Below are positions 7,943 through 52,497 of a stretch of 64,000 nucleotides of DNA, one piece after another (position 1 is the stretch's first letter; the number at the start of each line of letters is the position of its first letter). Both the position numbers and the translations under genes were made by a program. This DNA comes from Spartobacteria bacterium (GTDB lineage: Bacteria; Verrucomicrobiota; Kiritimatiellia; RZYC01): contig RZYC01000001.1 in NCBI GenBank assembly GCA_009930475.1, forward strand, positions 17,062 to 81,061, written 5' to 3'. A model generated the notes under the pieces. It did not search any database, was not told the DNA's origin, and saw only the letters and a list, made by a program, of their open reading frames with translations.

Positions 7943-8004
7943 TGTTGAATGTCAGATTAAAACATTAAACGAAGTACAGCAGAAAGGATTTGGGGAAAGC
8001 GGAT

Positions 8005-34340: not shown

Positions 34341-34359
34341 AACACAAAAGGAGAACATC

Positions 34360-34749: not shown

Positions 34750-34752
34750 ATT

Positions 34753-35271
34753 ATGATCAGTAAAACCATGACGGATGCCTTAAACCGGCAAATCAATGCG
34801 GAAGTATATTCTGCGTACCTATACCAGTCCATGGCCGCCTATGCCACATATACCGGCATGAAAGGGGTAGCCAACTGGCTGAATGTTCAGGCAAAAGAAG
34901 AAATGGCACATGCCCAGATTTTTTATCAATATATAAACAGTCAGGGCGAACAGGTCATCCTCTATGCCATTGAACAGCCACCCAGCGAGTTTGAATCGGT
35001 CGGTGATATTTTCGAACAGACGCTGGCTCATGAAAAGAAAATCACGGGACTGATCAACGATCTCGCCAATCTGGCACAGGATGAACGGGATCACGCCACG
35101 GCCAACTTCCTTCAGTGGTTCGTCGATGAACAGGTGGAAGAAGAAGGCAATGCCCGGGATATTCTCGATAAATTCAAACTGACCGGAGGCCAGGGCAACG
35201 GTTTGTTTATGATTGATAGTGAACTGGCTGCAAGAGTTTTTGTGATGCCTGCAAAGCTGTCACAAGGGTAG
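34753..35271 (+). CDS. ftnA: Non-heme bacterial ferritin (FtnA-like)
   Basis: The protein aligns with E. coli FtnA: ALNRQINAEVYSAYLYQSM, QAKEEMAHAQ and ANFLQWFVDEQVEEE. It is 172 aa, with the ATG 3 nt after the dfx stop. Confidence 0.8.
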   Translation: MISKTMTDALNRQINAEVYSAYLYQSMAAYATYTGMKGVANWLNVQAKEEMAHAQIFYQYINSQGEQVILYAIEQPPSEFESVGDIFEQTLAHEKKITGLINDLANLAQDERDHATANFLQWFVDEQVEEEGNARDILDKFKLTGGQGNGLFMIDSELAARVFVMPAKLSQG

Positions 35272-35310
35272 AATGACGGTGCAATCGATAAATACAAAAG
35301 GAGAAATAAA

Positions 35311-35472
35311 ATGAAAAAATATGTATGTAATATCTGCGGTTATATCTACGATCCCGAACTGGGCGATCCCGACAGCGGTGTTGCTCCAGGCACAGCCTTT
35401 GAAGACATTCCTGATGATTGGTGCTGCCCTGAATGCGGCGTAGGCAAAGACGATTTCAGTGCAGAAGACTGA
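35311..35472 (+). CDS. Rubredoxin
   Basis: The 53-aa product [53 protein letters not shown] has the CxxCG…CPxCG motifs. An AAAGGAGAA RBS precedes the start. It is not in the ORF track because it is under 60 aa. Confidence 0.85.
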
Positions 35473-35493
35473 TCGAACAACTGGAGAAAAATC

Positions 35494-36642
35494 ATGCGTG
35501 TAGGCATCATTGGAGCCGGACACGCGGGTGTGGCGGCAGCATGGGATCTGGCGAAGGCGGGGGTACAAGTAACCCTGTTTTCAGCCGAGCCTGTGCTGCC
35601 CTATTTTCGTCCCCGCATCGTCGCCTATGCCTTCGGGCAGGCGACTGCGGCAGAAATAGAAATGCATCCGCTGGACTGGTATGAAAAGCAGAACATCACC
35701 CTCGTCACAAACGAGGCCGTCACTGCTGTGGAAACACAGAATAGTGACTTTAACATTCGCACAGCAACGAGCGAAACACTGGTTGATCACGTCATCATCG
35801 CATCCGGTGCTGGACCGATTATGCCACCATTCGCACGCGGTGATTTTACTTCGGTGGTTCCCCTGTGGTCTATGCAGCATGCAGGACAGATCAGAAACCG
35901 CCTGCGGGATGGACTCAGAATGATGATTATCGGCGGAGGCGTCATCGGTATTGAAGCCGCACTGCGCGCGGCCGACATAGGCGTTAAGGTCAGTATCGTC
36001 GAGAAACTCGATACATTAATGGCCCGCAACTTCAGCCCGGAAGCATCGGAAATGATTCGAGAATTACTTCAGTCCGCACAGATTGATGTGCTGACCGGAC
36101 GTTCCGTATCGACATTGACCCAGACAGACAGCGAAACCGTTCAGGTGACCTTTGAACATCATGATCCGGTGAAAACCGACTTGGTGCTCATGTCCATCGG
36201 CGCCGCGCGTCAGGTCAACTTCCAATTACCAGACGACGTGACCTTTGATCGCGGCATCTGCGTCGATGACTGCATGCGGACCGCGCACCCGGGGATATGG
36301 GCCTGCGGCGATATCGCCCAGTTTACCCAGCCCCTGCCATGTACCGCCCGGGGGGCAACCATACAGGGGAAAGGCATCGCCGCCAACATCATCGCCGGCA
36401 TGGACAGTCAGGATGCAAAACCATATATCGTGGAGCCGGTTGCGATGTCACTGAAGTATAAAAACTATCAGTTCCATTCTGCGGGTGCCGTCGCCTCAGG
36501 CCCGTTGCATGAAGAAAAAATGGAGAGCGATCCCGGAACCTATCGAGTTCGTGTACTGGACGAAAAAGGTCAGCTCCACGGTGTTCAGATGGTGGGAACC
36601 GCACAGGACTTCCAGCAGATGTCAAAAGCTGTTGAATTCTAG
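35494..36642 (+). CDS. NAD(P)H:rubredoxin oxidoreductase (FAD-dependent pyridine nucleotide-disulfide oxidoreductase)
   Basis: MRVGIIGAGHAGVAAAWDLAKAG contains the FAD-binding GxGxxG motif. A second dinucleotide fold (MMIIGGGVIGIEAA) is present. It lies directly downstream of rubredoxin. Confidence 0.75.
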   Translation: MRVGIIGAGHAGVAAAWDLAKAGVQVTLFSAEPVLPYFRPRIVAYAFGQATAAEIEMHPLDWYEKQNITLVTNEAVTAVETQNSDFNIRTATSETLVDHVIIASGAGPIMPPFARGDFTSVVPLWSMQHAGQIRNRLRDGLRMMIIGGGVIGIEAALRAADIGVKVSIVEKLDTLMARNFSPEASEMIRELLQSAQIDVLTGRSVSTLTQTDSETVQVTFEHHDPVKTDLVLMSIGAARQVNFQLPDDVTFDRGICVDDCMRTAHPGIWACGDIAQFTQPLPCTARGATIQGKGIAANIIAGMDSQDAKPYIVEPVAMSLKYKNYQFHSAGAVASGPLHEEKMESDPGTYRVRVLDEKGQLHGVQMVGTAQDFQQMSKAVEF

Positions 36643-37470: not shown

Positions 37471-39297
37471 TTATTCGGGCGTCTTGAGGGGAAGCCGAAT
37501 ACTGAAGGTGGTTTTGCCGGATTTGCTGGTGCAGCTCATAAGACCGTCGTGAGATTCGATGATGTGCTGGCAGATGGACAGGCCGAGGCCGGTATTGGTT
37601 TTGCCGACTTTGGTACTGAAAAAGGGATCGAATATTTTATCCATCACTTCAGGGGGGATGCCGCTGCCATTGTCAGTGACGGTAATTTCGGCGTATTGAC
37701 CGTCATTCGGACAGGTGGCGGCGATGCGGATGGTTCCACCTTCGGGGACGGCATCCCAGCTGTTGACAATGAGGTTCATCAGGACCTGTTTGAGTTTATT
37801 TTCCTGTCCGGCAATGAAGATGGCTTCGCCGGGGTCACGGATGATATTGATGTTTTTCTGCCGCAGTTTGTGGTTGAGAAGGATGAGGATATCGTCGATG
37901 AGCGGCTGGACGGCGACGCGGCGCATAACGGGTATGCGGTTGATTTTTGAAAAGGACAGGAGGCTCTCTACAATACCGGCGATGCGTTTGAGTTCGGCGT
38001 CCACCTTTTCCAGTTTTCGGAGAGAATCTTCGTCCTGCATTTTCCGGCGCATGATGGCGACATAATTACTGATGATGCCCAGAGGGTTATTGATTTCATG
38101 AGCAACACCGGCGGCCAGTTCGGCGATGGATTCGATTTTTTGTGAGCGAAGCAGGTATTCATTAACCTGACGGTCACGCGTGATATCTTCGAAGATGATA
38201 ATGGTTCCGAGATAGCGGTCGTTTTCGTCTTTAAAGGGTCCGATGTGAATGCGCAGGTATTTATTATCGCCATGTTTGAATTCGTCCCATGATTTCTCTG
38301 TTCGCTCATCGATGGCCTTCATCAGTTCGGCCGCCTGTTCCGTGATTTCTCCGTCGGCATCTTTGGGAACGATCGCATCCATCGTCAGATTCATGATTCG
38401 GTCCTGATCGATTTCCAGGATTGCGGATGCGGCATAATTGGTAAGATAGACATGGTTCTTTTCGTCGAGAATCACGATGCCTTCAGGGATATTTTTAATG
38501 ATATCTTCGTTGTATTTTTTGAGCAGAAACAATTCCCGGTTGTGATGTTCCAGTTCTTCGCGCGACATAACAAAGGAATAGGTGAGCTTGATAAGCTTCA
38601 CCTTATCGATATCCTGAATTTCCTCGGTTCCGATATTACGTCCGTTCTGCATGATGGTGACACGATCGGCGAGGTCAAATATCTCGTTCATGTTGTGCGT
38701 AATATAAATCACACTGCGTCCCTGGTGGCGCAGACCGAACAGCAGTTTATAAACGCGCTCCATTTCCACCGGCGTAAGCTTAAAGGATATCTCATCGAAA
38801 ATGATCACTTCAGGATGATTAATCAGCACTTTTGCCAGTTCCACCATATGCTGATCGGCCTGCGGCATCAGGCTGAGAGGGATATTGAGATCGAGATCGA
38901 TTCCTAATGAATCCAGCAGCTGCTGCGCTTCTTTCTCCATGACACGCCGTCGCACGCCACCCCACCAGTAGCGCTTAAAATATCCGGCATACATATTCTC
39001 CACCGCATCCAGCGCATTGATCACGTTATTATGCTGATAGAACATGCTGATGCCGTCGCGCATGGCGGTATGCGGCGTGAAATAAGGCATATCAACGCCG
39101 CGATAATAGATCAGACCTTTTTTCATGCGCACTGCACCGCTGAGCACCTTGACGAGGGTGGATTTTCCGGAACGGTGTTCGCCGACAAGACCGTGAATTT
39201 CACCTTTCCGAAGATCAAAATCCACGCCCTTCAGCACCTGTGTGGTGCCGTAATTCACATGAATATTGCGCATCTGCACAATAAGGTCGGATGTCAT
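37471..39297 (-). CDS. Cytoplasmic sensor histidine kinase with an N-terminal ABC-transporter ATP-binding domain (NBD-PAS-HisKA-HATPase_c fusion)
   Basis: Residues 1 to about 240 carry the Walker A motif GEHRSGKST, a Q-loop, a degenerate signature LSLMPQADQHMVELAKVL, the Walker B motif VIIFDEIS and the H-loop YITHNMNE. This region is most similar to the N-terminal half of CUT2 sugar ABC ATPases such as the neighbour at 45117-46607. A PAS-like region follows, then an H-box AHEINNPLG, then HATPase_c (…DNGSGIPPEV…GLGLSICQ…). No TM helices are present. The start overlaps the response-regulator stop (ATGA). Confidence 0.8.
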   Translation of the reverse strand: MTSDLIVQMRNIHVNYGTTQVLKGVDFDLRKGEIHGLVGEHRSGKSTLVKVLSGAVRMKKGLIYYRGVDMPYFTPHTAMRDGISMFYQHNNVINALDAVENMYAGYFKRYWWGGVRRRVMEKEAQQLLDSLGIDLDLNIPLSLMPQADQHMVELAKVLINHPEVIIFDEISFKLTPVEMERVYKLLFGLRHQGRSVIYITHNMNEIFDLADRVTIMQNGRNIGTEEIQDIDKVKLIKLTYSFVMSREELEHHNRELFLLKKYNEDIIKNIPEGIVILDEKNHVYLTNYAASAILEIDQDRIMNLTMDAIVPKDADGEITEQAAELMKAIDERTEKSWDEFKHGDNKYLRIHIGPFKDENDRYLGTIIIFEDITRDRQVNEYLLRSQKIESIAELAAGVAHEINNPLGIISNYVAIMRRKMQDEDSLRKLEKVDAELKRIAGIVESLLSFSKINRIPVMRRVAVQPLIDDILILLNHKLRQKNINIIRDPGEAIFIAGQENKLKQVLMNLIVNSWDAVPEGGTIRIAATCPNDGQYAEITVTDNGSGIPPEVMDKIFDPFFSTKVGKTNTGLGLSICQHIIESHDGLMSCTSKSGKTTFSIRLPLKTPE

Positions 39298-40616
39298 AAC
39301 GCCATATCCAGCTTTTTCATACGGTTGTACAGCGTACGACGACTGATATTCAGGATATCGGCGGCCTTCTGTTTGACACCGCCGCTGCGTTCCAGTGCAT
39401 CTTCGATCATGGAACGACTTAACCGTTCGAAGGCATTTTCATAGGACTCCAATTCATCCTGCTGAAGCAGTTTGGTATATTGCGCGGCCAGATGTTCCGG
39501 CTCAATCAACGGCTTTTCACAGAAAATAACCGACCGCTCAATACAGTTCTTGAGTTCACGGACATTGCCCGGCCAGGTATGGACGCGGATGATCTCCTCC
39601 ACAGAAGGTGAGACGCCCTGAATATTTTTGCCATACACCTTGTTGTACTGCTCGATGAAATAACGGGTCAGCATCATGGCATCATCGGTGCGGTCACGCA
39701 GTGGCGGCAGGTGCAGCGTAATAACGGACAGCCGGTAATACAAATCCTCACGAAACCGCTGGTCTTCGATCAATTCATCCAGATCCTGATGGGTTGCAGC
39801 AATGATGCGGATATCGGTCTTGATGGTTTTATTTCCCCCGACTTTTTCGAATTCCTGTTCCTGAATCACCCGCAGAATTTTTGCCTGGGTTTTCAGACTC
39901 ATATCGCCGATTTCATCCAGAAACAGCGTGCCGCCATTGGCCATCTCGAAGCGCCCAATGCGTTCTTTTATCGCGCCGGTGAAGGCACCTTTTTCATGAC
40001 CGAACAATTCACTTTCCAAGAGTTCGTCGGGAATGGCGGCGCAGTTGATCTTGATAAACGGGGCATCGCTGCGCCGGCTCATCTGCTGGATCGCTCTCGC
40101 CACCAGTTCCTTCCCCGTTCCGCTTTCGCCGGTAATAAGAACCGGAGCATCGGTGGGGGCGGCCTTATCGAGCAGCGACAATACTTTTCTCATCTTCGCA
40201 TCATAAGTAACAATGCCGCCCTGCGGCAGATGAACTCGACCGCCTGCCTGCACCGCCTGTCGGGCATGTTCCCCTATTTCCTGCAGCAGCTGATCGAGAT
40301 CAATGGGTTTGGTATAGACGTTGACGGCACCATAACGCATGGCAAGGACGACATCCTGCACAGTGGGATATCCTGTCATCATCGTTACCGGTAAATCCGA
40401 GGCGATGGACTTGATTTTCTGCAGCAGTTCCACGCCGCCCATTTCAGGCATACGAATATCCAGCATCACCATATCGTAGTTGGTTACCGCGATTTTACCC
40501 AGTGCTTCGGACGGGTGCATGGTCCAGTCCGCGATCATGCCTTCGGATTCCAGCAGTTCCGAAAGCGAGCGGCACATTTCTTCTTCGTCATCCACAATAA
40601 GAATGCGGTAATTCAT
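39294..40616 (-). CDS. Sigma-54-dependent response regulator (NtrC family: REC-AAA+-HTH)
   Basis: The REC domain has a phospho-acceptor Asp (MNYRILIVDDEEE…VMLDIRMPEMGG). The AAA+ sigma-54 activator domain has GESGTGKE, GAFTGA and ESELFGHEKGAFTGA. A C-terminal Fis-type HTH is present. A GAGG RBS precedes the start. Confidence 0.85.
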   Translation of the reverse strand: MNYRILIVDDEEEMCRSLSELLESEGMIADWTMHPSEALGKIAVTNYDMVMLDIRMPEMGGVELLQKIKSIASDLPVTMMTGYPTVQDVVLAMRYGAVNVYTKPIDLDQLLQEIGEHARQAVQAGGRVHLPQGGIVTYDAKMRKVLSLLDKAAPTDAPVLITGESGTGKELVARAIQQMSRRSDAPFIKINCAAIPDELLESELFGHEKGAFTGAIKERIGRFEMANGGTLFLDEIGDMSLKTQAKILRVIQEQEFEKVGGNKTIKTDIRIIAATHQDLDELIEDQRFREDLYYRLSVITLHLPPLRDRTDDAMMLTRYFIEQYNKVYGKNIQGVSPSVEEIIRVHTWPGNVRELKNCIERSVIFCEKPLIEPEHLAAQYTKLLQQDELESYENAFERLSRSMIEDALERSGGVKQKAADILNISRRTLYNRMKKLDMAL

Positions 40617-40664
40617 AGTTAAAACCTCAATTTGAGACACAGATTAACGCTTTTGTGCCCCTTT

Positions 40665-43631
40665 TTAAAAGTTCCAATCATTGGAACTTTTTTCCGGAAA
40701 CCTTCCAATCATTGGAAGTTTTTTTGCTGAAAGTTCCAATGGTTGGAACTTTTCAGCTTCGTGCGCTGCGGCACATTTGAAGCGCGAAATAAGTTCTGTC
40801 AGCTGCGTCGACTGGTGATCAAGGGTTCCTGCGGTCTGAGCCGTTTCATCGGCACCGGCCATGGTTTGCTGGGTGACCTGATCAATCTGTTCCATTCCGA
40901 TCTGAATCTGACTCACGGCCTCGGCCTGTTCGCGGGATGCATCGGCTATATGCTGTACATGTTCGGACGACTTGGAAATACCGCCTACCATGGACTGGAA
41001 TGTTGCGGAAACAGCATGGACGGATTGCTGTCCGGCTTCCACACGGTTCACCGTTTCGTCGATGAGTTCAGCCGTTTCTTTGGCCGCTTTTGCACTGCGT
41101 CCGGCCAGGTTGCGTACTTCATCGGCCACGACCGCAAAGCCTTTGCCGTAGGTTCCGGCGCGGGCGGCTTCGACGGCGGCGTTCAACGCAAGCAAATTGG
41201 TCTGAAAGGCAATGTCGTCGATGACTTTATTGATCTTGGCTATTTGCTGACCCGATTCCTGGATGGCCTGCATGGCCTGCCCCATCATTTCAATTTCTTT
41301 TTCACCCACGCCGGCACTGCGCTGCACCGAAGCGAATTCACGGGAGGCCACATGGGCTTCATTGGCATTTTCATTGGCCTGATGGGATATCTGCGTCATG
41401 GAACTGCTGATTTCCTGCAGGGAAGAGGCCTGACGGGTAGCGCCCTCAGCCAGCTGCTGACTTGCATCATTAATCTGCTGTGCTCCTTCATGAACCTGTC
41501 CCGCCGTATCCGAGACCTGACTCAGGGCCTCACTCAAGTTGTCGAGCATGGAGTTAACATTTGCCTTAAGTTCCGCCAGCCGCCCGTTGTATTCACCGTT
41601 TACACGGATGGTTAAATCGTTTTCTGCCGCCGCGTTCAGTGCGTTGGCCGTTTCATCCAGTGGATCAATAACCGCATCCATGGTGTGATTGATGCCTTCC
41701 ACGATCTGACGGAAGGCCCCTTCATGATTTTCAGGGTCGGCCCGGAAAGACAAATCGCCTGACTGGCCGGCCTCGGCCAGCTGCTGTACATCCTGAATGA
41801 GCAGTCCGATGGCACCGATACATTGATTGATATCGTTCTTCAGTGTCTCGAATTCTCCCTTGAAATCGGCGGCAATGGGCTCGGGCAAAATGCCCGAACC
41901 CAATGCACGGATGCACGCAGCCGCTTTAGTTAGGGGAACGGAGACGGCATCAAGATTGGCATTAAATTCTTCAATGATCGTACAAAAAACGCCGCGATGA
42001 CCGGAGGCATCGGCTCGAACCTGTAATTGACCGGCTATCCCCGCTCTGGCCAGCGATTCGACGTCGGTGATCATATTTTCCAGCGACTCCATCATGGCGA
42101 TAAAACTGGGGGTAAGTCGATCGGCCTCGGATAATTTGCCCATTTCACGATAGGCGGCAAGATCTTCCAGACTGCCTTCGGCGATATGCTCGGCTGTATG
42201 CTGCAGCAGCAGAAAACGATCGCGCAAGTTATTGGCGGCCTTCGCAATCAGCAGATAATCGCCCGTACAGTTTTCGTCCATAGAGCCGGTCATATCATTG
42301 ACAGACAACCGTTCCATCATGCCGATCGCGTTATGAACGGGCGTGGCTACTTTGTCCATCATCTGATTCATGCGCTGGACCATTTCCTGAAAGACGCCAT
42401 CGAATGCTGACACGTTGCCGCGATAGGATAATTCACCCTGCTCGCAGGCCTGAGTCAGCTCTCCAACCTGCCCGATAATCGAGCGAAGGGTCTCTACAAT
42501 AGAACCGAAGGCTCCATATATCCGGCCGATTTCATCACGGCTTGAAGTCGTCAAATCAATATCAATATTACCATTGCGAATATGCCCCGCTGCATCGACC
42601 AATGCACGGATGGGACCAATTATACGACGAATCATGATACCTGCCAAAAAAATGGAAAGGATCAGACCTCCACATAACAGCAGCCCCATGTTGCGGATAC
42701 TGGTTCTGCTCATGGCTGCATCCGCCTCTGCAGCCTGCGCCGCAATATCCGAGCTGGTCTGGGCGACGGTGCGAGCCTTGTCGATGATCTCCTGTGAAAG
42801 GCTGCTCATCCTGGCCACATGGGATGCAAGGGTAACCGTGGTATCCATGCAGGTCTGTACGTTTTTCACGAAATTCATGACCTCTTTCTGCTGCCCGTCT
42901 ATGGCGGCAAGCATACTCCGGTTTCCCGTCTCTTTCTTCAATTCATCCAGCAGCGGTTCCACTGAAAGAGCGGTGGCCTCAGCCAGCTTCCCCATGTCTG
43001 GCTGCTGCGTATGGATGAACTGCATCAACTGCACCTGTGCCTGATTGATCGTGGCGGCAATTTGCTGAATGATATTCATCTGCGTGATGCGAATATCGAT
43101 CACTCTGCGATCGTAATCATAATCCAGTGCTTCGGTAAGTCTTTCTTCTGCATCAACTTTCTGCTTTGCTGCGCTGTCCGTTACCAGTGTTGCGGTTTTG
43201 GCGGCCTGTGCTGCGGCATCACTGCGCTCCGAGACCAGATCAGCGCACTCAATGTATAAATTCCGGTAATCCTTTTCCGCAGTCATCGCGGCCCGAATTA
43301 TCCCTTCCAGCTGTGTCAGTTCCATACTGGCTGCCAGAGAATCCAGCGAGGTCAGTCCTGCGCGCACCGCATCCAGTGCCGTGACACCTCTGTCATGGAC
43401 AGACGGATTTTGTTCCAATAAATAGCGTTTTTCACTGATAAGCACCTGTCCGACATGACTCTCCACTTCAAAGGCATCTTGTTGAAGAACATATGTGCGG
43501 GTTGTCAGCTGGTTGATTTCTTCGCTGAGGCGTACCACCCCGCTAATGCCCATCGCCCCAATGAGCATCGCCACCAATGTGCTTACCGCGAAACCAATCA
43601 CAATCTTGCTTTTTATCGAAACAGTTATCAT
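40665..43631 (-). CDS. Methyl-accepting chemotaxis protein with a periplasmic sensor domain and a multi-HAMP array
   Basis: It has two TM helices, several HAMP-like repeats, and a conserved MCP signalling domain (…[21 protein letters not shown]…[46 protein letters not shown]). A GGAGG RBS lies 9 nt before the chosen ATG (MITVSIK…). The last 30 codons are REP-derived. Confidence 0.85.
40667..40754. repeat. REP-like palindromic repeat cluster E (3 units, opposite orientation, centre base C)
   Basis: Units are at 40667-40693 (AAAAGTTCCAATCATTGGAACTTTTTT), 40698-40725 (AAACCTTCCAATCATTGGAAGTTTTTTT) and 40729-40754 (GAAAGTTCCAATGGTTGGAACTTTTC). The cluster lies inside the 3' end of the MCP reading frame. 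Confidence 0.85.
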
Positions 43632-43654
43632 ATCCGCCATCCTCCTTATGTGTG

Positions 43655-43692
43655 CAAAAAAATCAACCGGTTCGGAACGATGTCCGAACCGG
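43655..43692 (-). terminator. Rho-independent terminator after sugar ABC operon 1
   Basis: A hairpin CCGGTTCGGAACGATGTCCGAACCGG is followed on the minus strand by a U-run (A-run at 43655-43664 on the plus strand), 16 nt after the permease stop. Confidence 0.45.
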
Positions 43693-43707
43693 CTCCCGGC
43701 ATTAATC

Positions 43708-45105
43708 CTATTGATTAGTCGCCTTGTCACCTTGAAGCATTTTAAGAACACTGCTCATTTTCCACCCCTGTTTCTTAAGCATGTCCAGCAGCACCGCACC
43801 AAGGATCACCAGTCCCAGCACGACCATCTGCGTATAACTTTCCACACCCGTCAGATTCATCCCGTTCTGAATCACCGCAATAATAAACGATCCAATCAGC
43901 GTGCCAAGAATCTTTCCTTCGCCGCCCGCCAGACTGGTCCCGCCGACCACGACCGCCGCAATGACATACATTTCATAGCCAACACCATAGGTAGGTGCGC
44001 CGCTCTTGAGCTGTGAGGCCAGAATAATACCGCCGAACCCGGAAAGCAGTCCGCAGAGGATATAAACGAACATCAGAACTTTATTGACGGGAACGCCTGA
44101 CAGACGAGCCGCTTCTTTATTGCCGCCAACCGCGTAGATATAACGACCTAACACCGTGCGCGTCATCAGAATATGCGCTGCGGCATAGAGAATGATAAGC
44201 AGCCAGACGGTATTGGGAATGCCAAACAATCCCATGCTGCGTCCCAGCCAGGTGATACTGTCCGGCACCTGATAAATCGACTGTCCATCGGCAAAAATGA
44301 AGGCAAATCCACGGGCGACCATCATCATGGCTAACGTCACAATAAAGGGAGGAATCATAAATTTTGTGACCATGAATCCCGAAAAACAACCGGAAAGACC
44401 GCTCATCACCATCGCCACCATGGCAAAAAAGACCATGGCCATCACACCGGCATCTTCACCGCCTCCGTATTTACGAATCATTAACGTCCAGACCACCGCC
44501 GACAGGGCAATCATACTGCCCACCGACAATTCGATTCCCGTCGTGATGATCACCATAGTCATACCAATGGCGATCACAGCAATCACAACAATGCGGTCGG
44601 CGATGGCCAGTAGATTGGATTTTTTGAGGAAATCAGGATAGTTATAAGGCTCCGGTTTGATGATCGTCACCGCGCTGTAACTGGCGTTTTCCTCTCCCAT
44701 TTTAGAAAGATATTTCCAGTTGGCTGAATCCTGAGAACCGATGATCACATCGACAGTCCCCGCTTCGCCGTATTTGATCAGATCTTTCTTCACTCCCGGA
44801 GGAGTGCCCTGGAACAACGCAACTTTGGCTGCCCCTTTGGCCTTCATCTGTTTTTCAACGGCCTGACCAAAAGCCATATCATCTTTTCCTCTGGTCGTGA
44901 TAATGGCGAAATTCGCTGATTTACCGAACTGGCTCAGTGCCGTTTTCACCATCGGCCCCGCCGCGTCCAGTCCCTGCGGCGACTGCTCTTTCAGCGTTGC
45001 CAGACTGTAGTAGCCGCACAGCAGCAGCAATACAAAAATAATCCCGTAATCGGCGAAAAACCGCCGCATCCATAGTGAGCCCTTTGATGTCTTTTCTTTG
45101 TTCAT
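43708..45105 (-). CDS. Sugar ABC transporter permease (CUT2/ribose-xylose-galactoside type, BPD_transp_2) with a large periplasmic insertion
   Basis: It is 465 aa with about 10 TM helices and a roughly 130-aa hydrophilic domain after TM1. The conserved CUT2 loop region is present (…[24 protein letters not shown]…). A TAAGGAG RBS precedes the start. Confidence 0.8.
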
Positions 45106-45116
45106 TGTGTTTCTCC

Positions 45117-46607
45117 TTAAACGACTGCTAATTCCATAATTTGTTCCTGAGTGGCATTCTTTACATCGGTTATTTCTCCGGTGATACGACCGCCATGCAT
45201 AACCAGAATGCGTGTACTCAAACCTAAGATTTCGGGCATTTCTGAACTGATCAATATGATCACTTTGCCGGCATCCGCCAATTCGTTAATAATCTGGTAA
45301 ATTTCAAATTTGGCTCCCACATCAATTCCGCGGGTCGGTTCGTCAAAGATTATGACGTCAAAGTCACGATACAGCCACTTGGCTAAAACGACTTTTTGCT
45401 GATTCCCGCCAGAAAGGTTGCCCGCTAATGCCTCATTGGTCGGTATTTTTATCGACAGGCTCTTGACGAATTTAGAGAATTCCTTGTCCTCTTTTTTCAG
45501 ATTGATAAATCCTTTGCGGGACAAACGATCGAAATTCGGCAATCCAAAATTATCACGCACTGAATTTCCCATCACCAGACCTTCCAGTTTGCGATGCTCG
45601 GACACCAACAGGATCCCGTTGTCGATTCCATCTCTGGCCGATTTAATTTTAAGCGGTTTGCCGTCGAGCAGCAGCGTTTTGTATTCGCCCTTGTCTGCTC
45701 CGCAAAAAATGCGAACCGATTCACTGCGACCCGCCCCCACCAGACCCGTCAACCCCAGGATTTCGCCGGCACGCACCGTCATCGATACATCGTGCACCCA
45801 TTTCGGCCGATTCAATCCCGTGACTTCCAGACGAACGTCGCCGATTTTTGGATTTTTTCGAACGGGAAATTCATTTTCAAGTTTTCGTCCCACCATCATC
45901 TCGATAAGTCGTTCCCTCTTCAGCTCTTTCGTCGGCTTCGTGCCCACATATTCGCCGTCGCGCATCACCATCACCTGATCTGAAATCTGGAATATTTCGT
46001 CCATGCGATGACTGATGTAAATAATGCCAATGCCTTGCTTTTTCAGGTCGTTGATAATCACAAATAATTTGGACACTTCCTGATTCGTCAATGCGGCGGT
46101 CGGTTCATCCATCACCAGAATTTTTGCCTGCAGCGACAAGGCCTTGGCAATTTCAACCACCTGCTGCTGCGCCACCGTTAAATCCCGGCACGGTACATTC
46201 GGCGGAATATTGATACCAATGCGATAGAACAGCGCCATGGCCTGTCTGTATTCGTTCAGCATCCGAATAAATCCCCAGTTATGTACTTCGCGCCCCAAAA
46301 AAATATTTTCGCAGGCCGATAAAGCAGGTATCAAATTGAATTCCTGGTAAATAATGCCGATTCCATTTTTCTGTGCATACGCCGGTGTCGGAATGGATAC
46401 CGGTTTGCCTTGCACCTCTATGTGACCGCTATCCGGCTGATACGCTCCACCCAAAACCTTCATCAAGGTACTTTTCCCTGCCCCGTTTTCCCCCATAAGT
46501 GCCAGGACTTCTCCGGAACGAAGCATCAAATCAATCCCATTTAAGGCTTTGACTCCAGGGAACGTCTTCACAATGTTTTTCATCGTTAGTAAAATCTCGC
46601 CCGCCAT
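45117..46607 (-). CDS. Sugar ABC transporter ATP-binding protein (two fused NBDs, RbsA/MglA/XylG-like)
   Basis: The first NBD has Walker A GENGAGKST and the signature LTVAQQQVVEIAKAL. A second NBD follows (…LSGGNQQKVVLAKWL…IIFDEPTRGIDV). The product is 496 aa, and an AAGGAGG RBS precedes the start. Confidence 0.85.
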   Translation of the reverse strand: MAGEILLTMKNIVKTFPGVKALNGIDLMLRSGEVLALMGENGAGKSTLMKVLGGAYQPDSGHIEVQGKPVSIPTPAYAQKNGIGIIYQEFNLIPALSACENIFLGREVHNWGFIRMLNEYRQAMALFYRIGINIPPNVPCRDLTVAQQQVVEIAKALSLQAKILVMDEPTAALTNQEVSKLFVIINDLKKQGIGIIYISHRMDEIFQISDQVMVMRDGEYVGTKPTKELKRERLIEMMVGRKLENEFPVRKNPKIGDVRLEVTGLNRPKWVHDVSMTVRAGEILGLTGLVGAGRSESVRIFCGADKGEYKTLLLDGKPLKIKSARDGIDNGILLVSEHRKLEGLVMGNSVRDNFGLPNFDRLSRKGFINLKKEDKEFSKFVKSLSIKIPTNEALAGNLSGGNQQKVVLAKWLYRDFDVIIFDEPTRGIDVGAKFEIYQIINELADAGKVIILISSEMPEILGLSTRILVMHGGRITGEITDVKNATQEQIMELAVV

Positions 46608-46697
46608 GATATCCTCCTTTTGCGACTCGCGCCGTTTCGTTGTTTTATTCTGAAAAGAAGGGCCATACCTTTCGGCATGGCCCTTAGGAGGAGGAGA

Positions 46698-47627
46698 CTA
46701 TTTTACGGAAGGATCTTTGTCCGCATCTGCTTTTTTGTACAAGCCGGTGGGAATCAATACAACCGATTTAACATCGTCGCCATCGAGATATTTCATGATC
46801 GTTTTTACAGTGATCTGACCGATTTTGCTCGGGAACTGGATTGGATCAGCATAGATACGACCGTCTTTGATCGCTTTTTTGCCTTCAGGAGCACCGTCAA
46901 AACCAACAATAACCACGTCACGTTCTGCTATTTCAGCTGCAGCTACAACACCCAAAGCAGAAGGATCGTTGATAGCAAATACACCGTCCAGATTCGGATA
47001 GGCCTGAAACACTTCTTTGGCGACAGAAAAACTGATGTCCTTGCTGCCGCGACCAGGCCATGCGCCCACGATTTCAATATCCGCATTCTGATCTTTGATT
47101 TCGTCTTTGAATCCCTGGGTTCTCATGATCACAGATTCCACTTCAGGATGGTCAATGATAGCCACGGTGCCCTTACCGTTCAGCGCTTCAATCATGGCGC
47201 GACCAGCCTGACGACCACCTTCGTAGTTGTCTGTTGCAATATGCGTAACAACCGGAGCACCGCCCAGAGCAGCAATGTCAGCAGTAAAGACAGGAATACC
47301 AGAGTCAGCCGCTTTTTGAATCGCAGGACCAATCGCTTTTGAATCAGCAGGATTCAAAATAATCGCAGAAACTTTTTTCGTAATGAAATCGTTGACCTGA
47401 TTGTTCTGCATTGCCGGGTCAAATTCAGAACTCACGATGATTGTGTCATATCCGCTTTTCGCCGCTTCTGCTGTCACACTGTCTGCCATTTCTTTGAAGA
47501 ACGGATTCTGCAAGGTCAGCACCGACATACCGATCGTGCCATTCGATGCCAGCGCATCAAATGCCAAACCCGTCACGCAGCATGCTGCCATAGCCCAAGA
47601 CATCCATTTTCTTTTATTACTATTCAT
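46698..47627 (-). CDS. Sugar ABC transporter periplasmic substrate-binding protein (RbsB-like, Peripla_BP_1)
   Basis: A signal peptide is followed by a type I periplasmic binding fold (…IGMSVLTLQNPFFKEMADSVTAEAAKSGYDTIIVSSEFD…). The start was set at ATG (MNSNKRKW…) with an AGGAG RBS. Confidence 0.8.
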   Translation of the reverse strand: MNSNKRKWMSWAMAACCVTGLAFDALASNGTIGMSVLTLQNPFFKEMADSVTAEAAKSGYDTIIVSSEFDPAMQNNQVNDFITKKVSAIILNPADSKAIGPAIQKAADSGIPVFTADIAALGGAPVVTHIATDNYEGGRQAGRAMIEALNGKGTVAIIDHPEVESVIMRTQGFKDEIKDQNADIEIVGAWPGRGSKDISFSVAKEVFQAYPNLDGVFAINDPSALGVVAAAEIAERDVVIVGFDGAPEGKKAIKDGRIYADPIQFPSKIGQITVKTIMKYLDGDDVKSVVLIPTGLYKKADADKDPSVK

Positions 47628-47698
47628 ATCCAACTCCTAGTTTTGACATGGTTTCTTAACGTTGTTACAACTGCACTTTCGCAGCCGACAATCAACAT

Positions 47699-47715
47699 CG
47701 CATGTAGTGTGCCAA
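47699..47715 (-). promoter_or_regulatory. Candidate sigma-54 promoter for sugar ABC operon 1
   Basis: On the minus strand the sequence reads TGGCACACTACATGCG, with exactly 10 nt between GG and GC. It lies about 72 nt upstream of the substrate-binding-protein ATG. The -12 element (ATGC) is imperfect. Confidence 0.3.
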
Positions 47716-47873
47716 CCATTTCTAATAAAAGCAATGCACTTGTTATCCATTGCAAAACAGGACGATACACAACACGCCGTTCTCGCCGCATTACCACCGG
47801 CGATCGCCCCCACCGTGAAAATCCGTTCCCACAACTGTGCAATCATATGTGCACAATGAAATGGAAGGGAAAT

Positions 47874-47970
47874 AGTGACAGACACATAAATATTGACTTG
47901 CGATAGGGATTGTATACAGGGAAAGAGTGACAGACACATAAATATTGACTTGCGATAGGGATTGTATACA
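47874..47970. repeat. Tandem direct repeat (2 x 45 bp, 7-bp spacer) immediately upstream of RAYT paralog 4
   Basis: AGTGACAGACACATAAATATTGACTTGCGATAGGGATTGTATACA occurs at 47874-47918 and again, identically, at 47926-47970. The unit is related to the region upstream of paralog 1 (…AGTGACAGTCACATATTAGTTGACACGAG…, 1221-1250). Confidence 0.8.
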
Positions 47971-47979
47971 TTGGATGGC

Positions 47980-48942
47980 ATGAGAAGAAAAAGGATAAAG
48001 CGAGAACGGTTGGCTTACTACCATTGCATGACACGTGTGGTGGGTCGTCAAATGCTGCTGGGATCGGTGGAGAAGGAGCACATGCGTGTGCTGATTCGAA
48101 AAATTGAGGGGTTTACGGGGGTTCGGGTTTTGACTTATGCGCTGATGACAAATCATATTCATTTGCTGTTGGAAGAGCCGGATCGGGCGACGGTGGTAGA
48201 GGATGATGTGTTGGTGGAGCGAATGCGTGCGCTGTATTCGGATGCGGAAATGGAGGAGATTCTGTTGCGGTGGGCGGATTGGCTGGACCAGGGGAATGTG
48301 GCTGCGGTGGAGAATGATAAGCATCTTTACAGAAGAAGGATGCATGATATCAGCGAATTCATGAAGACGTTGAAACATCGGTTTTCATTTTGGTATAATC
48401 GGTTGCATGATCGCAAGGGGACATTGTGGTCGGAACGGTTTAAGAGTGTGCTGGTTGAGGGCGGAAATGCTTTGAGGACCGTGGCGGCGTATATTGAGAT
48501 GAATCCGGTACGGGCGGGTTTGTCATGTGATCCGTCGGAATATCCATTTTGCGGACTTGGTGACGCTGTGACTGGGTCGGGCGCGGCGAAAGATGGTATT
48601 ATGGAGCTGGTGGTTCAAAAGAATGCGGCTTTTGGAATACATGCAGTAGAGCACTCATGGGACGTTCTGTCGGTTGTCTACTTTGATGACGTATTGATGT
48701 ACGGGCGAGCAAAGAGTGACGGGCAACCTCTTGAGCCGGCGGTGGAGTTGTTGTGTCGCAATCGCTTTTTCACTGACGGGCAGGTTCTTGGAGGTAGGGA
48801 TTTCGTTGAGGAATTTTTTCGAGCAAACAGAGCGTATTTTGGACCGCAGAGAGTGGCAGGCGGTCGCAAAGTTAAGGGATGGACGGGATGTCTTTATGCG
48901 ATCCGAGATGTGGGACGAAGTGCGGACGTGCCCAAGAAATAG
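47980..48942 (+). mobile_element. RAYT/IS200-like Y1 HUH transposase paralog 4
   Basis: MRRKRIKRERLAYYHCMTRVVGRQMLLGS… carries the HUH motif TNHIHLLL, the tyrosine motif AAYIEMNPVRAG and the conserved C-terminal block. It is about 80% aa-identical to paralog 1. The ATG start was chosen; the ORF track starts at a TTG at 47962. Confidence 0.75.
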
Positions 48943-49908
48943 CTAGCGTCGTTTTCGACTGATAAAGACATTGATGACGACGGAGACGGCAATGAGCAGG
49001 CCGACTAATGCATCCTGAACATAGGCATTGGTACCCATGAGTACGAGACCCGTGCGAACCTGAGCAATGATGAGTGCGCCAAGGAAAGTCCCAAAAATAC
49101 CGCCGATGCCGCCATTCATAGATGTACCGCCAATCACGGCCGCAGCAATGGCTTCCAATTCAAGGCCTCCGCCCTGGGACGGTGTGGTGGTGCCAAGATA
49201 TCCCATGGAAATCAGCGAGGCACATCCGGCTGCGAAGGCGGTAATCAGGAAGCAGCGGCGCTTAATTTTGTCGGTGCGGATTCCGACCAGACCAGCGGCC
49301 TCTTTATTGTCGCCTGTGGCATAAACTTTTACCCCGAAAGACGTCCTGTGCATGACGAAATAAAAGATGCAGAGTGCTACGAAGAGCCACAGCACAGGAA
49401 TGGGGATAAATCCAAACAGCTTTGCATGTCCTGTAAATTCAAAGAAAAAGCCCTTGTTCAGTCCGGAGACCGACTGGGCGCCAGTGAGAACCATGGCAAC
49501 GCCCCGAAAAACCTTCATGGTTGCCAGTGTCCCGATAAAAGAATGAATGCCTGTTTTCGTAACAAGCAAGCCATTTACCGCCCCGAGAAGAAGTCCAATA
49601 CCCAGAGCACAACCGGCCGACAACCAGATATTATGCAGTACGTTTTTATAAAGCAGACCGGTTACTACACCGACGACGGCATAAATGGAACCCACCGATA
49701 AATCGAACTCGCCCCCAACGATCAACATACTCATGGCCATCGCCACAATCCCCAGCTCAGCCGTTTGTCGCAGCATGGTAAAAATGGTATAAGATGTCAA
49801 AAAATTAGGTGCGGTCAGAGAGAAAAACACCCCGACAACAATGGCTGAAATCAGCACACCGACATCGCGTCCACCGGCTTTAAATAATTTCAATTTAGTA
49901 TTTCTCAT
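48943..49908 (-). CDS. Sugar ABC transporter permease (CUT2 type), operon 2
   Basis: It is 321 aa and polytopic, with the conserved loop …KVYATGDNKEAAGLVGIRTDKIK…. It is paralogous to the permease at 43708-45105 but lacks the periplasmic insertion. Confidence 0.8.
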   Translation of the reverse strand: MRNTKLKLFKAGGRDVGVLISAIVVGVFFSLTAPNFLTSYTIFTMLRQTAELGIVAMAMSMLIVGGEFDLSVGSIYAVVGVVTGLLYKNVLHNIWLSAGCALGIGLLLGAVNGLLVTKTGIHSFIGTLATMKVFRGVAMVLTGAQSVSGLNKGFFFEFTGHAKLFGFIPIPVLWLFVALCIFYFVMHRTSFGVKVYATGDNKEAAGLVGIRTDKIKRRCFLITAFAAGCASLISMGYLGTTTPSQGGGLELEAIAAAVIGGTSMNGGIGGIFGTFLGALIIAQVRTGLVLMGTNAYVQDALVGLLIAVSVVINVFISRKRR

Positions 49909-49945
49909 AACGGCTCTTTATTCAGGGTTCTTTGTTCTTCGTTTA

Positions 49946-51430: not shown

Positions 51431-51444
51431 GCCCGTTCCTCCGA

Positions 51445-52437: not shown

Positions 52438-52497
52438 CACGTACTCCTTGTTCTAGTTATTAAACCGTACTGGTATAACTCCATTCTTCGAATTAAG

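Follow-up and report, generated by a model that had tools for sequence, protein, structure and literature searches.

A family of sensor histidine kinases with an N-terminal CUT2-type ATPase domain, encoded beside a sigma-54 response regulator and a sugar ABC transporter

The window is the whole stretch of DNA analysed, 64,000 nucleotides of contig RZYC01000001.1 from a Spartobacteria bacterium. The open reading frames described in it by the initial annotation, which was made from the letters alone, all lie on the minus strand. In the direction of transcription, the features of the locus are the following.

47699..47714 (-): candidate sigma-54 -24/-12 element, TGGCACACTACATGCG, about 70 nt upstream of the start codon of the sugar-binding protein
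46698..47627 (-): sugar-binding protein (SBP), Peripla_BP_4, RbsB-like (Pfam, NCBIfam)
45117..46607 (-): CUT2 ATPase with two fused nucleotide-binding domains, called NBD1 and NBD2 (Pfam, NCBIfam)
43708..45105 (-): CUT2 permease (BPD_transp_2) with an insertion (Pfam, NCBIfam)
43665..43694 (-): intrinsic-terminator-like hairpin, a 12-bp stem followed by GATTTTTTTG, between permease and MCP
40665..43631 (-): transmembrane MCP (Pfam, NCBIfam)
39294..40640 (-): NtrC-type sigma-54-dependent response regulator with REC, AAA+ (GAFTGA) and HTH_8 domains (Pfam, NCBIfam)
37471..39297 (-): soluble sensor histidine kinase of 608 aa, with ABC NBD, linker, PAS, DHp and CA (Pfam, NCBIfam)
38578..39297 (-): kinase NBD, residues 1-240, CUT2 NBD1 type (Pfam, NCBIfam, BLASTP, AF2, Foldseek)
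39157-39183 (-): Walker A of the kinase NBD, GEHRSGKST (motif read directly)
39034-39036 (-): Q-loop Q88 of the kinase NBD (motif read directly)
38833-38877 (-): signature-equivalent segment of the kinase NBD, LSLMPQADQHMVELA (comparison with CUT2 NBD1)
38791-38808 (-): Walker B of the kinase NBD, VIIFDE (motif read directly)
38695-38697 (-): H-loop H201 of the kinase NBD (motif read directly)
38488..38577 (-): NBD-PAS linker, residues 241-270, SFVMSREELEHHNRELFLLKKYNEDIIKNI (conservation in a 34-sequence alignment)
38173..38487 (-): PAS domain, residues 271-375 (Pfam PAS_4, E=2.4e-8)
37474..38172 (-): DHp/HisKA and HATPase_c catalytic domain (Pfam)
38098-38100 (-): phospho-acceptor H400 of the kinase (motif read directly)

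Pfam and NCBIfam searches recovered what had been proposed to lie beside the kinase, namely a complete sugar ABC operon, a multi-HAMP MCP and a second CUT2 operon, and a Y1-transposase-like gene was found where a RAYT-like gene had been read. Better gene starts were recognized for the SBP (47627) and the MCP (43631), and possibly for the response regulator (ATG 40616). In the adjacent ATPase, NBD1 has consensus Walker A and B motifs and an H-loop, but its signature is not LSGGQ; in NBD2, GAGRSE and LSGGNQQK are found and the H-loop histidine is missing. The unusual insertion noticed in the permease is present as about 120 extra residues (about 38-155) that separate TM1 from the conserved core. 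A search for homologues of this insertion detected none, and the same permease frame was found in an independent assembly. The second CUT2 operon has a sigma-70-like promoter, and a motif scan revealed no sigma-54 site there. The MCP, about 990 aa long, has two TM segments, a helical periplasmic domain of about 280 aa, a HAMP domain, a poly-HAMP region and an MCPsignal domain. Because a terminator-like hairpin follows the permease stop, SBP-ATPase-permease and MCP-regulator-kinase are probably two transcription units, the MCP probably being co-transcribed with the regulator and the kinase.

The kinase had been described as a cytoplasmic protein with an ABC ATPase domain followed by PAS and kinase domains. 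This was confirmed by the absence of a TM segment (maximal Kyte-Doolittle 19-residue mean of 1.21) and by Pfam matches to ABC_tran (residues 22-169, E=6e-22), PAS_4 (269-376), HisKA (392-453) and HATPase_c (498-605). Pfam and the TM scan disclosed no other sensory domain apart from the poorly conserved PAS, which is the most variable domain of the kinase (mean pairwise identity 28%, versus 41% for the NBD). H400, N508, D542, G544 and G546 are kept in at least 86 of 88 kinase representatives. An AF2 model of the monomer had a mean pLDDT of 82, with values of ~90 for the NBD and <50 for the linker; the linker is among the best-conserved segments of the 34-sequence alignment. The stop of the response regulator gene, which encodes GAFTGA at residue 218, overlaps the kinase start (ATGA, within TTATGACA), in agreement with the noted translational coupling of the kinase to an NtrC-type activator.

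We considered the possibility that the fusion was an assembly or sequencing artefact that had merged a piece of an ATPase with a separate kinase gene, the window being derived from a metagenome-assembled genome. No support for this was found. The identical 608-aa frame was present on an independently assembled contig (Logan, run SRR8327731), hundreds of full-length homologues from many sources have the junction at the same position, and few segments are as well conserved as the linker over the junction. The independent assembly and the full-length homologues refute an artefactual origin for practical purposes, leaving it a negligible chance, and the fusion is taken as genuine.

The resemblance of the N-terminal domain to NBD1 of sugar ATPases was borne out by Pfam, NCBIfam, BLASTP, an NBD tree and AF2/Foldseek. 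NCBIfam matched residues 6-237 to AraG positions 7-238 (E=3e-51) and also to other CUT2 ATPases. By BLASTP, identity to the adjacent ATPase was 34% for NBD1 (E=3e-49) and 27% for NBD2 (E=3e-16), and identity to NBD1 of the second ATPase in the window was 31% (E=1e-34). As judged from its predicted model, the fold of the kinase NBD is complete; Foldseek superposed it on LptB (TM 0.84-0.86, rmsd 2.9 A) and MalK (rmsd 2.5 A). In the tree, the kinase NBDs form a single clade whose sister group is CUT2 NBD1; their mean identity is 32% to NBD1 versus 22.5% to NBD2. Judged on this phylogeny, the data show that the kinase NBD arose once, from NBD1 of CUT2 (ribose/arabinose-type) ATPases.

The best 120 database matches to the kinase were all full-length fusions with 46-57% identity. 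A query spanning the NBD-PAS junction retrieved the family specifically, giving 156 representatives at 50% clustering, of which 90 were 560-700 aa long and 88 had an aligned NBD. The architecture thus forms about 90 clusters at 50% identity, mostly in Spirochaetota, and has diverged to 17-51% identity in the NBD. Among the loci examined are one from a cultured Oceanispirochaeta, two each from Ca. Vecturithrix and L010, and those of the most divergent members. The response regulator gene was directly upstream of the kinase in every one, usually with an overlap. Wherever the neighbourhood was readable, a CUT2 ATPase and permease adjoined the kinase and regulator, with one permease gene per adjacent operon, and most of these loci also had a recognizable SBP gene. 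In two-module genomes, each kinase is paired with its own transporter. By gene order, then, kinase, sigma-54 regulator and CUT2 transporter are a conserved module, and such fusions recur beside CUT2 transporters in other genomes. The MCP is not a conserved part of the module to which it had been assigned: it does adjoin the regulator and kinase in the window, but the terminator separates it from the ABC operon and it was absent from 13/13 other loci with a readable neighbourhood. Full-text literature searches found no published description of the NBD-kinase fusion, in agreement with the initial annotation, so that the family is apparently undescribed.

The sigma-54 element proposed for the ABC operon of the window matches 9/12 specified positions. 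It is weak if taken alone, because about 4.4 sites of that quality are found per 10 kb on both strands. Yet, its position corresponds to that of the sites at the 15/15 orthologous operons: a -24/-12 element matching 10-12/12 positions was found directly upstream, and in the right orientation, of all 15 other CUT2 operons lying beside such kinases, against a background of 0.78 per 10 kb. At 9/15 of them the score was at least 11/12, for which the background is 0.14 per 10 kb (17 in 1.22 Mb). In some genomes, the CUT2 operon also includes downstream sugar-catabolism genes. From these elements, the kinase and the regulator are very probably a two-component system dedicated to switching on the neighbouring sugar-transporter operon.

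The nucleotide site of the kinase NBD appears to be under constraint. Over the 88 representatives, the Walker A Lys (81/88), the Walker B Asp (83/88) and the catalytic Glu (79/88) are kept in 90-94%, whereas the Q-loop Gln (69/88) and above all the H-loop His (only 47/88, 53%) are relaxed. This pattern suggests ATP binding without fast hydrolysis. LSGGQ was found in 0/88 representatives. The initial annotation had taken the 'degenerate' signature for a peculiarity of the kinase, but it is a trait common to CUT2 NBD1s, including those of the adjacent ATPases, which read L[ST]VAQQQxVEIAKAL; the kinase motif is therefore inherited. We considered whether the NBD might be largely vestigial, a fragment of the neighbouring ATPase that was fused and serves a structural or solubility role, the input acting elsewhere, for instance through a partner on DHp/CA as PII on NtrB. 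Adjacent genes could readily give rise to such a fusion, the canonical signature is absent, and the H-loop His and Q-loop Gln are lost in 47% and 22% of representatives. Yet, the NBD is better conserved than the PAS, its Walker residues persist in divergent proteins, and family-specific substitutions adjoin the nucleotide site (GE-H-x-xGKS, and DE-[IAV]-[SL] where NBD1 has DEPT), pointing to purifying selection on nucleotide binding and making a vestigial domain unlikely.

We propose tentatively, with a probability of about 0.4, that the NBD is a signal-input domain that couples the kinase to the transporter by docking on the permease. A kinase dimer would offer two NBD1-like domains and the permease homodimer two identical docking sites, so that the kinase dimer could replace the ATPase on the permease. 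When sugar-loaded SBP binds, it would make the two kinase NBDs close in an ATP-dependent manner, as in a normal importer, and closure would be relayed through the conserved linker and the PAS to the DHp helices, changing autophosphorylation. In an NBD1:NBD1 pair, a consensus Walker A would meet a non-canonical signature at both composite ATP sites; ATP should therefore be bound by the complex but hydrolysed poorly. If this is true, the kinase-permease complex would be a signalling rather than a transporting complex. There is a precedent for signalling from an NBD to a PAS kinase in PstB-PhoU-PhoR (PMC6978683). Docking is plausible from the Q-loop/helical-subdomain consensus of the kinase NBD, YQENPLIPNLSVAENIFLGR, which is the same as that of transport-competent NBD1, YQELNLIPDMSVAENLFLGR. 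Against docking, each adjacent transporter already has a complete two-NBD ATPase and so does not need the kinase as a subunit, the Q-loop and H-loop residues are relaxed in part of the family, and adjacency alone is explained by the regulator-target relationship. A low-powered co-variation analysis gave no specific signal for the kinase NBD with the permease (r=0.44; 0.46 with the ATPase), the kinase C-terminus and the regulator reaching 0.60 and 0.61 with the permease, as compared with 0.92 and 0.90 for the true partners ATPase-permease and kinase NBD-regulator. A sequence search found no CUT2 transporter structure.

With a somewhat lower probability, the kinase instead senses in the cytoplasm, independently of the transporter. 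Its PAS would bind the imported sugar or a derived metabolite, and the NBD would be an ATP-dependent dimerisation clamp or an ATP/ADP gate, sigma-54 control of the adjacent operon being retained. A soluble kinase with a PAS, the commonest cytoplasmic ligand-sensing fold, agrees with this, as do the variability of that domain, expected if the ligand differs between modules, the lack of specific NBD-permease co-variation, the transporter's own full ATPase, and the Walker and H-loop pattern, which fits an ATP-binding switch. However, PAS divergence followed that of the SBP (r=0.52) no better than did NBD, DHp and CA (0.55-0.56). Cytoplasmic sensing leaves unexplained why a CUT2 NBD1 was retained with its transporter-type Q-loop/helical-subdomain consensus in so diverged a family, and a generic energy gate need not be duplicated for each transporter in two-module genomes.

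Alternatively, the kinase could be an energising subunit, its NBD powering the permease alone or with another NBD while the role of the kinase part is confined to reporting on it. In favour of this, the NBD has the catalytic Glu, the window protein also has the H-loop His, and the NBD belongs to the same subfamily as the transporter's catalytic NBD1. Yet, the sole consensus site of CUT2 ATPases needs the LSGGNQQK of NBD2, which the kinase lacks; a stand-alone NBD2 gene was seen in no locus examined, a complete ATPase is encoded at every locus, and half the family has a relaxed H-loop. This role is highly improbable.

Several known systems share features with this module. For the MCP only, the comparison is with Trg-type chemoreceptors (PMC8050422), which sense sugars via RbsB/MglB. 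The MCP of the window likewise spans the membrane, has a helical periplasmic domain and has an RbsB-like SBP encoded beside it, but it is much longer, with its poly-HAMP region, and is not conserved at other loci; chemotaxis to the same sugar by way of the SBP may reasonably be guessed at. In XylFII-LytS/YesN, ChvE-VirA and LuxP-LuxQ (PMC8050422), a two-component system detects sugars by means of RbsB-family (Peripla_BP_4) binding proteins, and XylFII-LytS induces the CUT2 operon xylFGH (PMC8050422). Their kinases span the membrane and make direct periplasmic contact with the SBP, whereas the present kinase has no TM or periplasmic part, so that any SBP signal would have to go through the permease.

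The C-terminal 350 residues of the kinase align with AtoS (NCBIfam, E=2.6e-76) and with ThkA (PDB 3a0r, E=3.4e-41), and the regulator with AtoC and NtrC, but the NtrB/NtrC and AtoS/AtoC classes have no member with an N-terminal ABC NBD. All NCBIfam scores are far below the equivalog cut-offs (257 versus 646 bits for AtoS), which makes the JGI 'AtoS' labels an over-annotation.

CbrA works with an NtrC-type sigma-54 regulator, CbrB. In CbrA/CrbS (PMC7096432, PMC5715377), as here, a transporter-derived domain is covalently fused to a sensor kinase; the fused part is a complete SLC5 membrane permease, joined via a STAC domain, whereas here the fusion is limited to the soluble ATPase half-domain from an ABC system, with no membrane segment.

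In systems of the BceAB-BceS type, transporter and kinase co-sense by flux sensing (PMC6978683, PMC3023708). There too, the genes for an ABC transporter lie with those for a two-component system, the kinase has no conventional extracellular sensor and the system controls the transporter's own genes. BceS, however, is membrane-bound and separate from the BceB permease to which it binds, the transporter being a MacB-like exporter and the regulator OmpR-type, whereas the present kinase is soluble, carries its ABC NBD covalently and is associated with a sigma-54 activator and a CUT2 importer.

In the PstSCAB-PhoU-PhoR system, the state of the PstB NBD is relayed to the cytoplasmic PAS of a kinase that lacks a periplasmic sensor (PMC6978683), and this path from NBD to PAS to DHp is the domain order of the present kinase. 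No PhoU-like gene was found in the NBD-kinase module. In the Pho system, the NBD, the adaptor PhoU and the membrane-anchored kinase PhoR are separate proteins, whereas in the present module a single soluble chain comprises both the NBD and the PAS-kinase, and the transporter retains an ATPase of its own.

The initial annotation had described the 608-residue kinase as a cytoplasmic protein in which an N-terminal ABC nucleotide-binding domain (NBD) precedes a PAS-like region and a histidine kinase core, and profile searches, hydropathy and structure prediction agreed in bearing this out. Pfam returned ABC_tran (E = 6e-22), PAS_4, HisKA (E = 4e-12) and HATPase_c (E = 4e-26). With NCBIfam, residues 6-237 matched positions 7-238 of the arabinose ATPase AraG (E = 3e-51), the same part also matched AlsA, YtfR, RbsA, MglA and XylG, and residues 255-606 matched AtoS; the ABC_tran and AraG matches thus identified the N-terminal region as an ABC NBD. 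No NCBIfam model spanned the full architecture, all matches being partial and far under the family cut-offs, which indicates that no curated family covers this kinase. It contained no hydrophobic or transmembrane segment (maximal hydropathy 1.21). AlphaFold2, with 34 homologues as input, gave a model that was confident for the NBD (pLDDT of about 90 over residues 1-235), the PAS domain, the dimerization domain (DHp) and the catalytic domain (CA), and without confidence for the linker (residues 240-265). The modelled NBD had a complete fold, with RecA-like and helical subdomains, and was aligned by Foldseek with LptB (TM-score 0.84-0.86, rmsd 2.9 Å), MalK (rmsd 2.5 Å) and FtsE (TM-score 0.84), the rmsd for the three being 2.5-2.9 Å. 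The C-terminal half, with long DHp helices at 372-450, superposed on the PAS-kinases YF1, ThkA and VicK.

We considered the possibility that the fusion was an artefact, a frameshift or misassembly having joined an ATPase fragment to a separate kinase. Yet the identical 608-aa open reading frame was present in a separately assembled contig from run SRR8327731, and the best 120 matches among 5.8 billion proteins were all full-length fusions, with 46-57% identity. A query of 91 residues spanning only the NBD-PAS junction, run against 1.84 billion clusters (50% identity), also found relatives: it retrieved 156 representatives, 90 of them 560-700 aa long and 88 aligning across the NBD, where their median identity to the kinase of the window was 31%. 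The independent assembly and the abundant full-length homologues rule out an artefact, the probability of which is virtually nil, and the fusion is genuine.

The family comprises about 90 clusters at 50% identity, mostly from Spirochaetota. Its named sources include Treponemataceae, Spirochaetaceae, Sediminispirochaeta and the cultured Oceanispirochaeta sp. M2; those outside Spirochaetota are Ca. Vecturithrix and the metagenome-assembled genome of the window itself, whose label, 'Spartobacteria', is odd beside a module otherwise found almost only in Spirochaetota. In databases the homologues are named 'ATP-binding protein' or 'ATP-binding cassette domain-containing protein', or 'AtoS' by JGI. 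The catalytic residues of the kinase domain were essentially invariant among the 88 representatives: H400, N508, D542, G544 and G546, as expected for the HisKA class, were each kept in at least 86.

In the window, the kinase gene is the last of a series on the minus strand, listed here in the order of transcription:

46698-47627 (-), RbsB-like sugar-binding protein (Pfam; NCBIfam RbsB, E = 1.7e-52)
45117-46607 (-), RbsA-like ATPase with two NBDs (Pfam; NCBIfam RbsA, E = 8e-173)
43708-45105 (-), RbsC-like permease (Pfam; NCBIfam RbsC, E = 6e-75)
43665-43694 (-), intrinsic terminator with a 12-bp stem, 3' of the permease gene and before the chemoreceptor gene
40665-43631 (-), long poly-HAMP chemoreceptor (MCP)
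39294-40640 (-), NtrC-type regulator (REC, AAA+ with GAFTGA, HTH_8)
37471-39297 (-), 608-aa kinase, with an ATGA overlap with the regulator gene

The transporter belongs to the ribose/arabinose type (CUT2, TC 3.A.1.2), with a Peripla_BP_4 binding protein, an ATPase of two fused NBDs (NBD1 and NBD2) and a BPD_transp_2 permease; its RbsB, RbsA and RbsC scores were all under the NCBIfam equivalog cut-offs. The regulator is of the NtrC type, with REC (E = 2.5e-26), Sigma54_activat (E = 1e-74) and HTH_8 (E = 1.7e-15) domains in Pfam and the GAFTGA motif at residue 218.

This neighbourhood was compared with 13 other readable loci, taken from nine species-representative genomes, Oceanispirochaeta sp. 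M2, Ca. Vecturithrix (two modules) and two of the most divergent members of the family; a tenth genome locus (L005) ends at the kinase and has no readable neighbourhood. A sigma-54 regulator gene lay directly upstream of the kinase gene in every locus, and a complete CUT2 operon adjoined the pair, divergently or in tandem, in every readable one, so that the association of NBD-kinase fusions with CUT2 transporters, for which the initial annotation had proposed a synteny search, was found in 13/13. Two genomes (L010 and L082) carried two kinase-regulator pairs each, every pair beside its own transporter. In divergent members the CUT2 operon ran on into SDR, RpiB, Dak1/Dak2 or transketolase genes.

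In L010 (1284-14747) and L082 (8685-21815), both modules are complete and fit within 20 kb. Their paralogous kinases are only 43-52% identical, and the module was thus duplicated as a unit and kept. In one of the most divergent members (L085, 16149-17507), an rpoN gene, encoding sigma-54, lies 6 kb from the kinase gene.

The loci were scanned for sigma-54 promoters with the pattern TGGCACG-N4-TTGCW (12 specified positions, with GG of the -24 and GC of the -12 element obligatory). Sites matching at 10-12 positions were found directly upstream of 15/15 CUT2 operons of the 13 other readable loci, on the correct strand, when the background of sites with at least 10 matches in 1.22 Mb of fetched DNA was 0.78 per 10 kb, or about 0.01 for a single strand of a 250-nt upstream region. 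At nine of the 15 operons the site had at least 11 matches; the whole 1.22 Mb contained only 17 sites of that quality. The candidate of the window itself (47699-47714, TGGCACACTACATGCG) keeps GG and GC but scores 9/12, a level common by chance; it occupies the equivalent place, some 70 nt ahead of the start codon of the binding-protein gene. We consider it very probable that the transporter operon next door is activated through a sigma-54 promoter by a dedicated system consisting of the kinase and the regulator. Membership of the second CUT2 operon of the window (48943-52440) in this regulon was not supported: no sigma-54-like site was found there, and a sigma-70-like promoter (TTGACA/TATAAA) is present instead.

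The window has several other notable features. A 52-nt unit at 47866-47969 is present as two tandem copies with 98% identity, the only ones in the window, at a distance of 150-270 nt on the upstream side of the sigma-54-like site. With TTGACT in each copy, it may represent a duplicated promoter; an enhancer serving the sigma-54 activator or an element of REP type would also be conceivable. The repeat overlaps the start of an open reading frame at 47962-48942 (+) resembling REP-associated tyrosine transposases (Y1_Tnp), which has a paralogue at 5901-6950 (-). Both genes are unusually long (326 and 349 aa), the Pfam match (E of about 6e-13) being confined to the first 60 residues. A site at 7926-7941 (+) matches the sigma-54 consensus perfectly (TGGCACGCGTATTGCT) and precedes an Hsp20-domain gene (7990-8754) by about 50 nt; a second site (11/12) lies at 5567-5582 (+), the two together showing that the sigma-54 regulon of this organism extends further. 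Beyond the Hsp20-domain gene comes an ABC-2 type cluster (ABC_tran, ABC2_membrane, ABC_transp_aux/DUF7088, DUF4340) resembling gliding-motility-type ABC systems. The genes flanking the module at 32658-36642 (+), for a PEP-utilising enzyme (PTS enzyme I-like), desulfoferrodoxin, ferritin and a pyridine-nucleotide disulfide oxidoreductase, form an oxidative-stress set typical of anaerobes.

The initial annotation had also counted the MCP as part of a possible signalling module, a view that did not survive the comparison. The MCP gene is absent from all other readable loci, none of which has the MCP-regulator-kinase arrangement, and it is placed after the terminator that separates it from the ABC operon; it is therefore a local addition and not a component of the conserved module. 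It is probably co-transcribed with the regulator and kinase genes, the gap to the regulator gene being 24 nt. The protein, of about 990 aa, has two transmembrane segments, a helical periplasmic domain of about 280 aa, one HAMP and at least three HAMP_2 units (an Aer2-like poly-HAMP arrangement) and a C-terminus ending in NDWNF. By analogy, we would guess that it may be a Trg-like chemoreceptor using the same binding protein (PMC8050422).

The permease of the window (465 aa) also has a peculiarity, an insertion of about 120 aa (residues ~38-155) between the first transmembrane segment and the conserved core. The same open reading frame, insertion included, is present in the separately assembled contig of SRR8327731. 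By topology, the insertion would be periplasmic, and it looks like an alternating beta-alpha-beta structure (...VDVIIGSQD). It had no Pfam match, and the permeases of the other loci lack it. A word-indexed search also returned no homologue, but missed the source protein too, which makes its sensitivity doubtful.

To which type the NBD of the kinase belongs was assessed in an alignment of the kinase NBDs and the two NBDs of each neighbouring CUT2 ATPase. These transporters are themselves asymmetric. NBD1 has the Walker A motif GENGAGKST, DEPT in the Walker B region, the H-loop histidine and a non-canonical signature (L[ST]VAQQQxVEIAKAL), whereas NBD2 has a deviant Walker A (GxxGAGR[ST]E), DEPTRG, no H-loop histidine and the canonical signature LSGGNQQK. 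The kinase NBD matched the NBD1 pattern at every motif. In the window, its Walker A (GxxGxGK[ST]) reads GEHRSGKST at residues 39-47, and Q88, VIIFDE (D168, E169) and H201 are all present. Among the 88 representatives, the Walker A lysine was found in 81, the Q-loop glutamine in 69, the Walker B aspartate in 83, the catalytic glutamate in 79 and the H-loop histidine in 47. BLASTP aligned the NBD of the window kinase with NBD1 at 34% identity (E = 3e-49) and with NBD2 at 27% (E = 3e-16), and the mean identity of the kinase NBDs was 32% to NBD1 and 22.5% to NBD2.

Could the NBD be vestigial? The 'degenerate' signature, stressed in the initial annotation, might have been read as a mark of decay: canonical LSGGQ occurs in no family member among the 88 representatives, the window kinase having LSLMPQADQ. 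However, LSGGQ is equally missing from every neighbouring, genuine CUT2 NBD1, so that its absence is inherited from the NBD1 type and is no argument against NBD membership. Furthermore, the consensus of the Q-loop and helical subdomain is unchanged from that of transport-competent NBD1s. The kinase NBDs also have their own conserved substitutions. The Walker A motif follows the family-specific form GE-H-x-xGKS, and its fourth position is R or G, where NBD1 has an invariant G; Walker B is followed by DE-[IAV]-[SL] instead of DEPT. Retained Walker A and B motifs, a relaxed H-loop and these substitutions together suggest that nucleotide binding is under selection in the kinase NBDs and that rapid hydrolysis is much less so. 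A vestigial domain appears improbable.

In a neighbour-joining tree, the kinase NBDs formed one clade, sister to CUT2 NBD1. Each was only 26-36% identical to the NBD1 encoded next door. Monophyly and low identity between cognate pairs rule out a recent capture from the adjacent ATPase and point to a single, ancient fusion event.

How the kinase might sense can be read in two ways. Its only classical sensor fold is the poorly conserved PAS domain, and it has no membrane or periplasmic part. We favour, with a probability of roughly 0.4, the reading in which the NBD couples the kinase to the transporter, since no other reading accounts for the persistence of a CUT2 NBD1 whose nucleotide-binding residues are intact. 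The initial annotation had put forward such a coupling, which is refined here; the consensus of the Q-loop and helical subdomain, being that of transport-competent NBD1s, is in keeping with it. In this scheme, a kinase dimer with its two NBD1-like domains would dock on the CUT2 permease dimer, which the single permease gene per locus implies to be a homodimer with two identical docking sites. By taking the place of the ATPase on a fraction of the permease dimers, it would turn the importer into a transmembrane receptor. Docking of the sugar-loaded binding protein outside would close the two NBD1-like domains around ATP inside. In such an NBD1:NBD1 pair, a consensus Walker A would face a non-canonical signature in both sites, and closure with little hydrolysis would be expected, a prediction that fits the conservation pattern of the kinase NBDs. 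Closure would be relayed through the conserved linker to the PAS domain and switch the kinase, and hence sigma-54-dependent transcription of the transporter operon. PstB-PhoU-PhoR, where an NBD signals to a PAS-kinase, offers a precedent (PMC6978683). The full picture, that of a receptor holding ATP without hydrolysing it, as both sites would lack a canonical signature, and signalling via linker and PAS, is somewhat less probable. That the kinase NBD energises transport is very improbable.

Alternatively, the PAS domain might bind the imported sugar or a metabolite, the NBD serving as an ATP gate or a dimerisation clamp; this is a real, though tentative, possibility. Co-variation between module components was assessed by Mantel tests on 13-14 modules with crude identity distances. 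The known partners gave r = 0.92 (ATPase and permease) and r = 0.90 (kinase NBD and regulator). Yet the kinase NBD and the permease gave only r = 0.44, no better than the C-terminus of the kinase (0.60) or the regulator (0.61) against the permease, which counts mildly against a tight, specific interface. Nor did PAS binding of the sugar fare better, as the PAS domain and the binding protein gave r = 0.52, no better than the NBD, DHp or CA domain against that protein. Co-variation therefore favours neither reading specifically. A sequence search of the PDB yielded no CUT2 ATPase, and no match to the CUT2 permease at E ≤ 1e-5, and hence no solved CUT2 transporter.

Both the architecture and its very clean regulatory setting come as a surprise; the mechanistic reading is a proposal. 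The naming of the family as 'AtoS' is an over-annotation and deserves correction even if the NBD does not dock. Owing to the unusually clean genomic context, the predicted chain from kinase to regulator, sigma-54 promoter and CUT2 operon is directly testable, and a cultured host of the module is at hand in Oceanispirochaeta sp. M2. Docking of the NBD, if it occurs, would make the kinase a covalent and genetically simple model of how substrate occupancy of an ABC importer is relayed to signalling proteins, a question still argued for PstSCAB-PhoU-PhoR and the Bce systems, and the asymmetry of CUT2 ATPases, in which one site is catalytic and the other degenerate, would prove reusable for a non-hydrolysing signalling complex. 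Should the receptor reading hold, an ABC NBD would here serve for the first time as the covalent input of a two-component sensor; without docking, the family would still represent a new type of cytoplasmic sensor gated by ATP.

The classification of two-component kinases rests largely on their input domains, and, as far as we found, an ABC NBD is absent from those described: searches of openly accessible full texts, and papers including a survey of two-component domain organisation, yielded no ABC-NBD/histidine-kinase fusion, in line with the initial annotation, which knew of no description of the architecture. In the trigger-transporter or co-sensor type (Bce-like, DctA-DcuS-like), the kinase needs and physically contacts a transporter; the present kinase is tied to its CUT2 transporter by genomic linkage, while co-variation gave no support. 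Bce-type co-sensing has a similar link between transporter and kinase, but the proteins are separate and the kinase is membrane-bound. PstSCAB-PhoU-PhoR follows the same NBD-to-PAS logic with three proteins. CbrA and CrbS are covalent fusions too, though with a whole SLC5 permease; the present kinase showed no transmembrane segment and no SLC5 or STAC match in Pfam, and its likeness to them is conceptual only. In XylFII-LytS, sugar sensing likewise induces a CUT2 operon, there through a periplasmic contact. None of these systems has an ABC NBD as covalent kinase input. A two-component system linked to a transporter is thus known; what is new here is the input domain.
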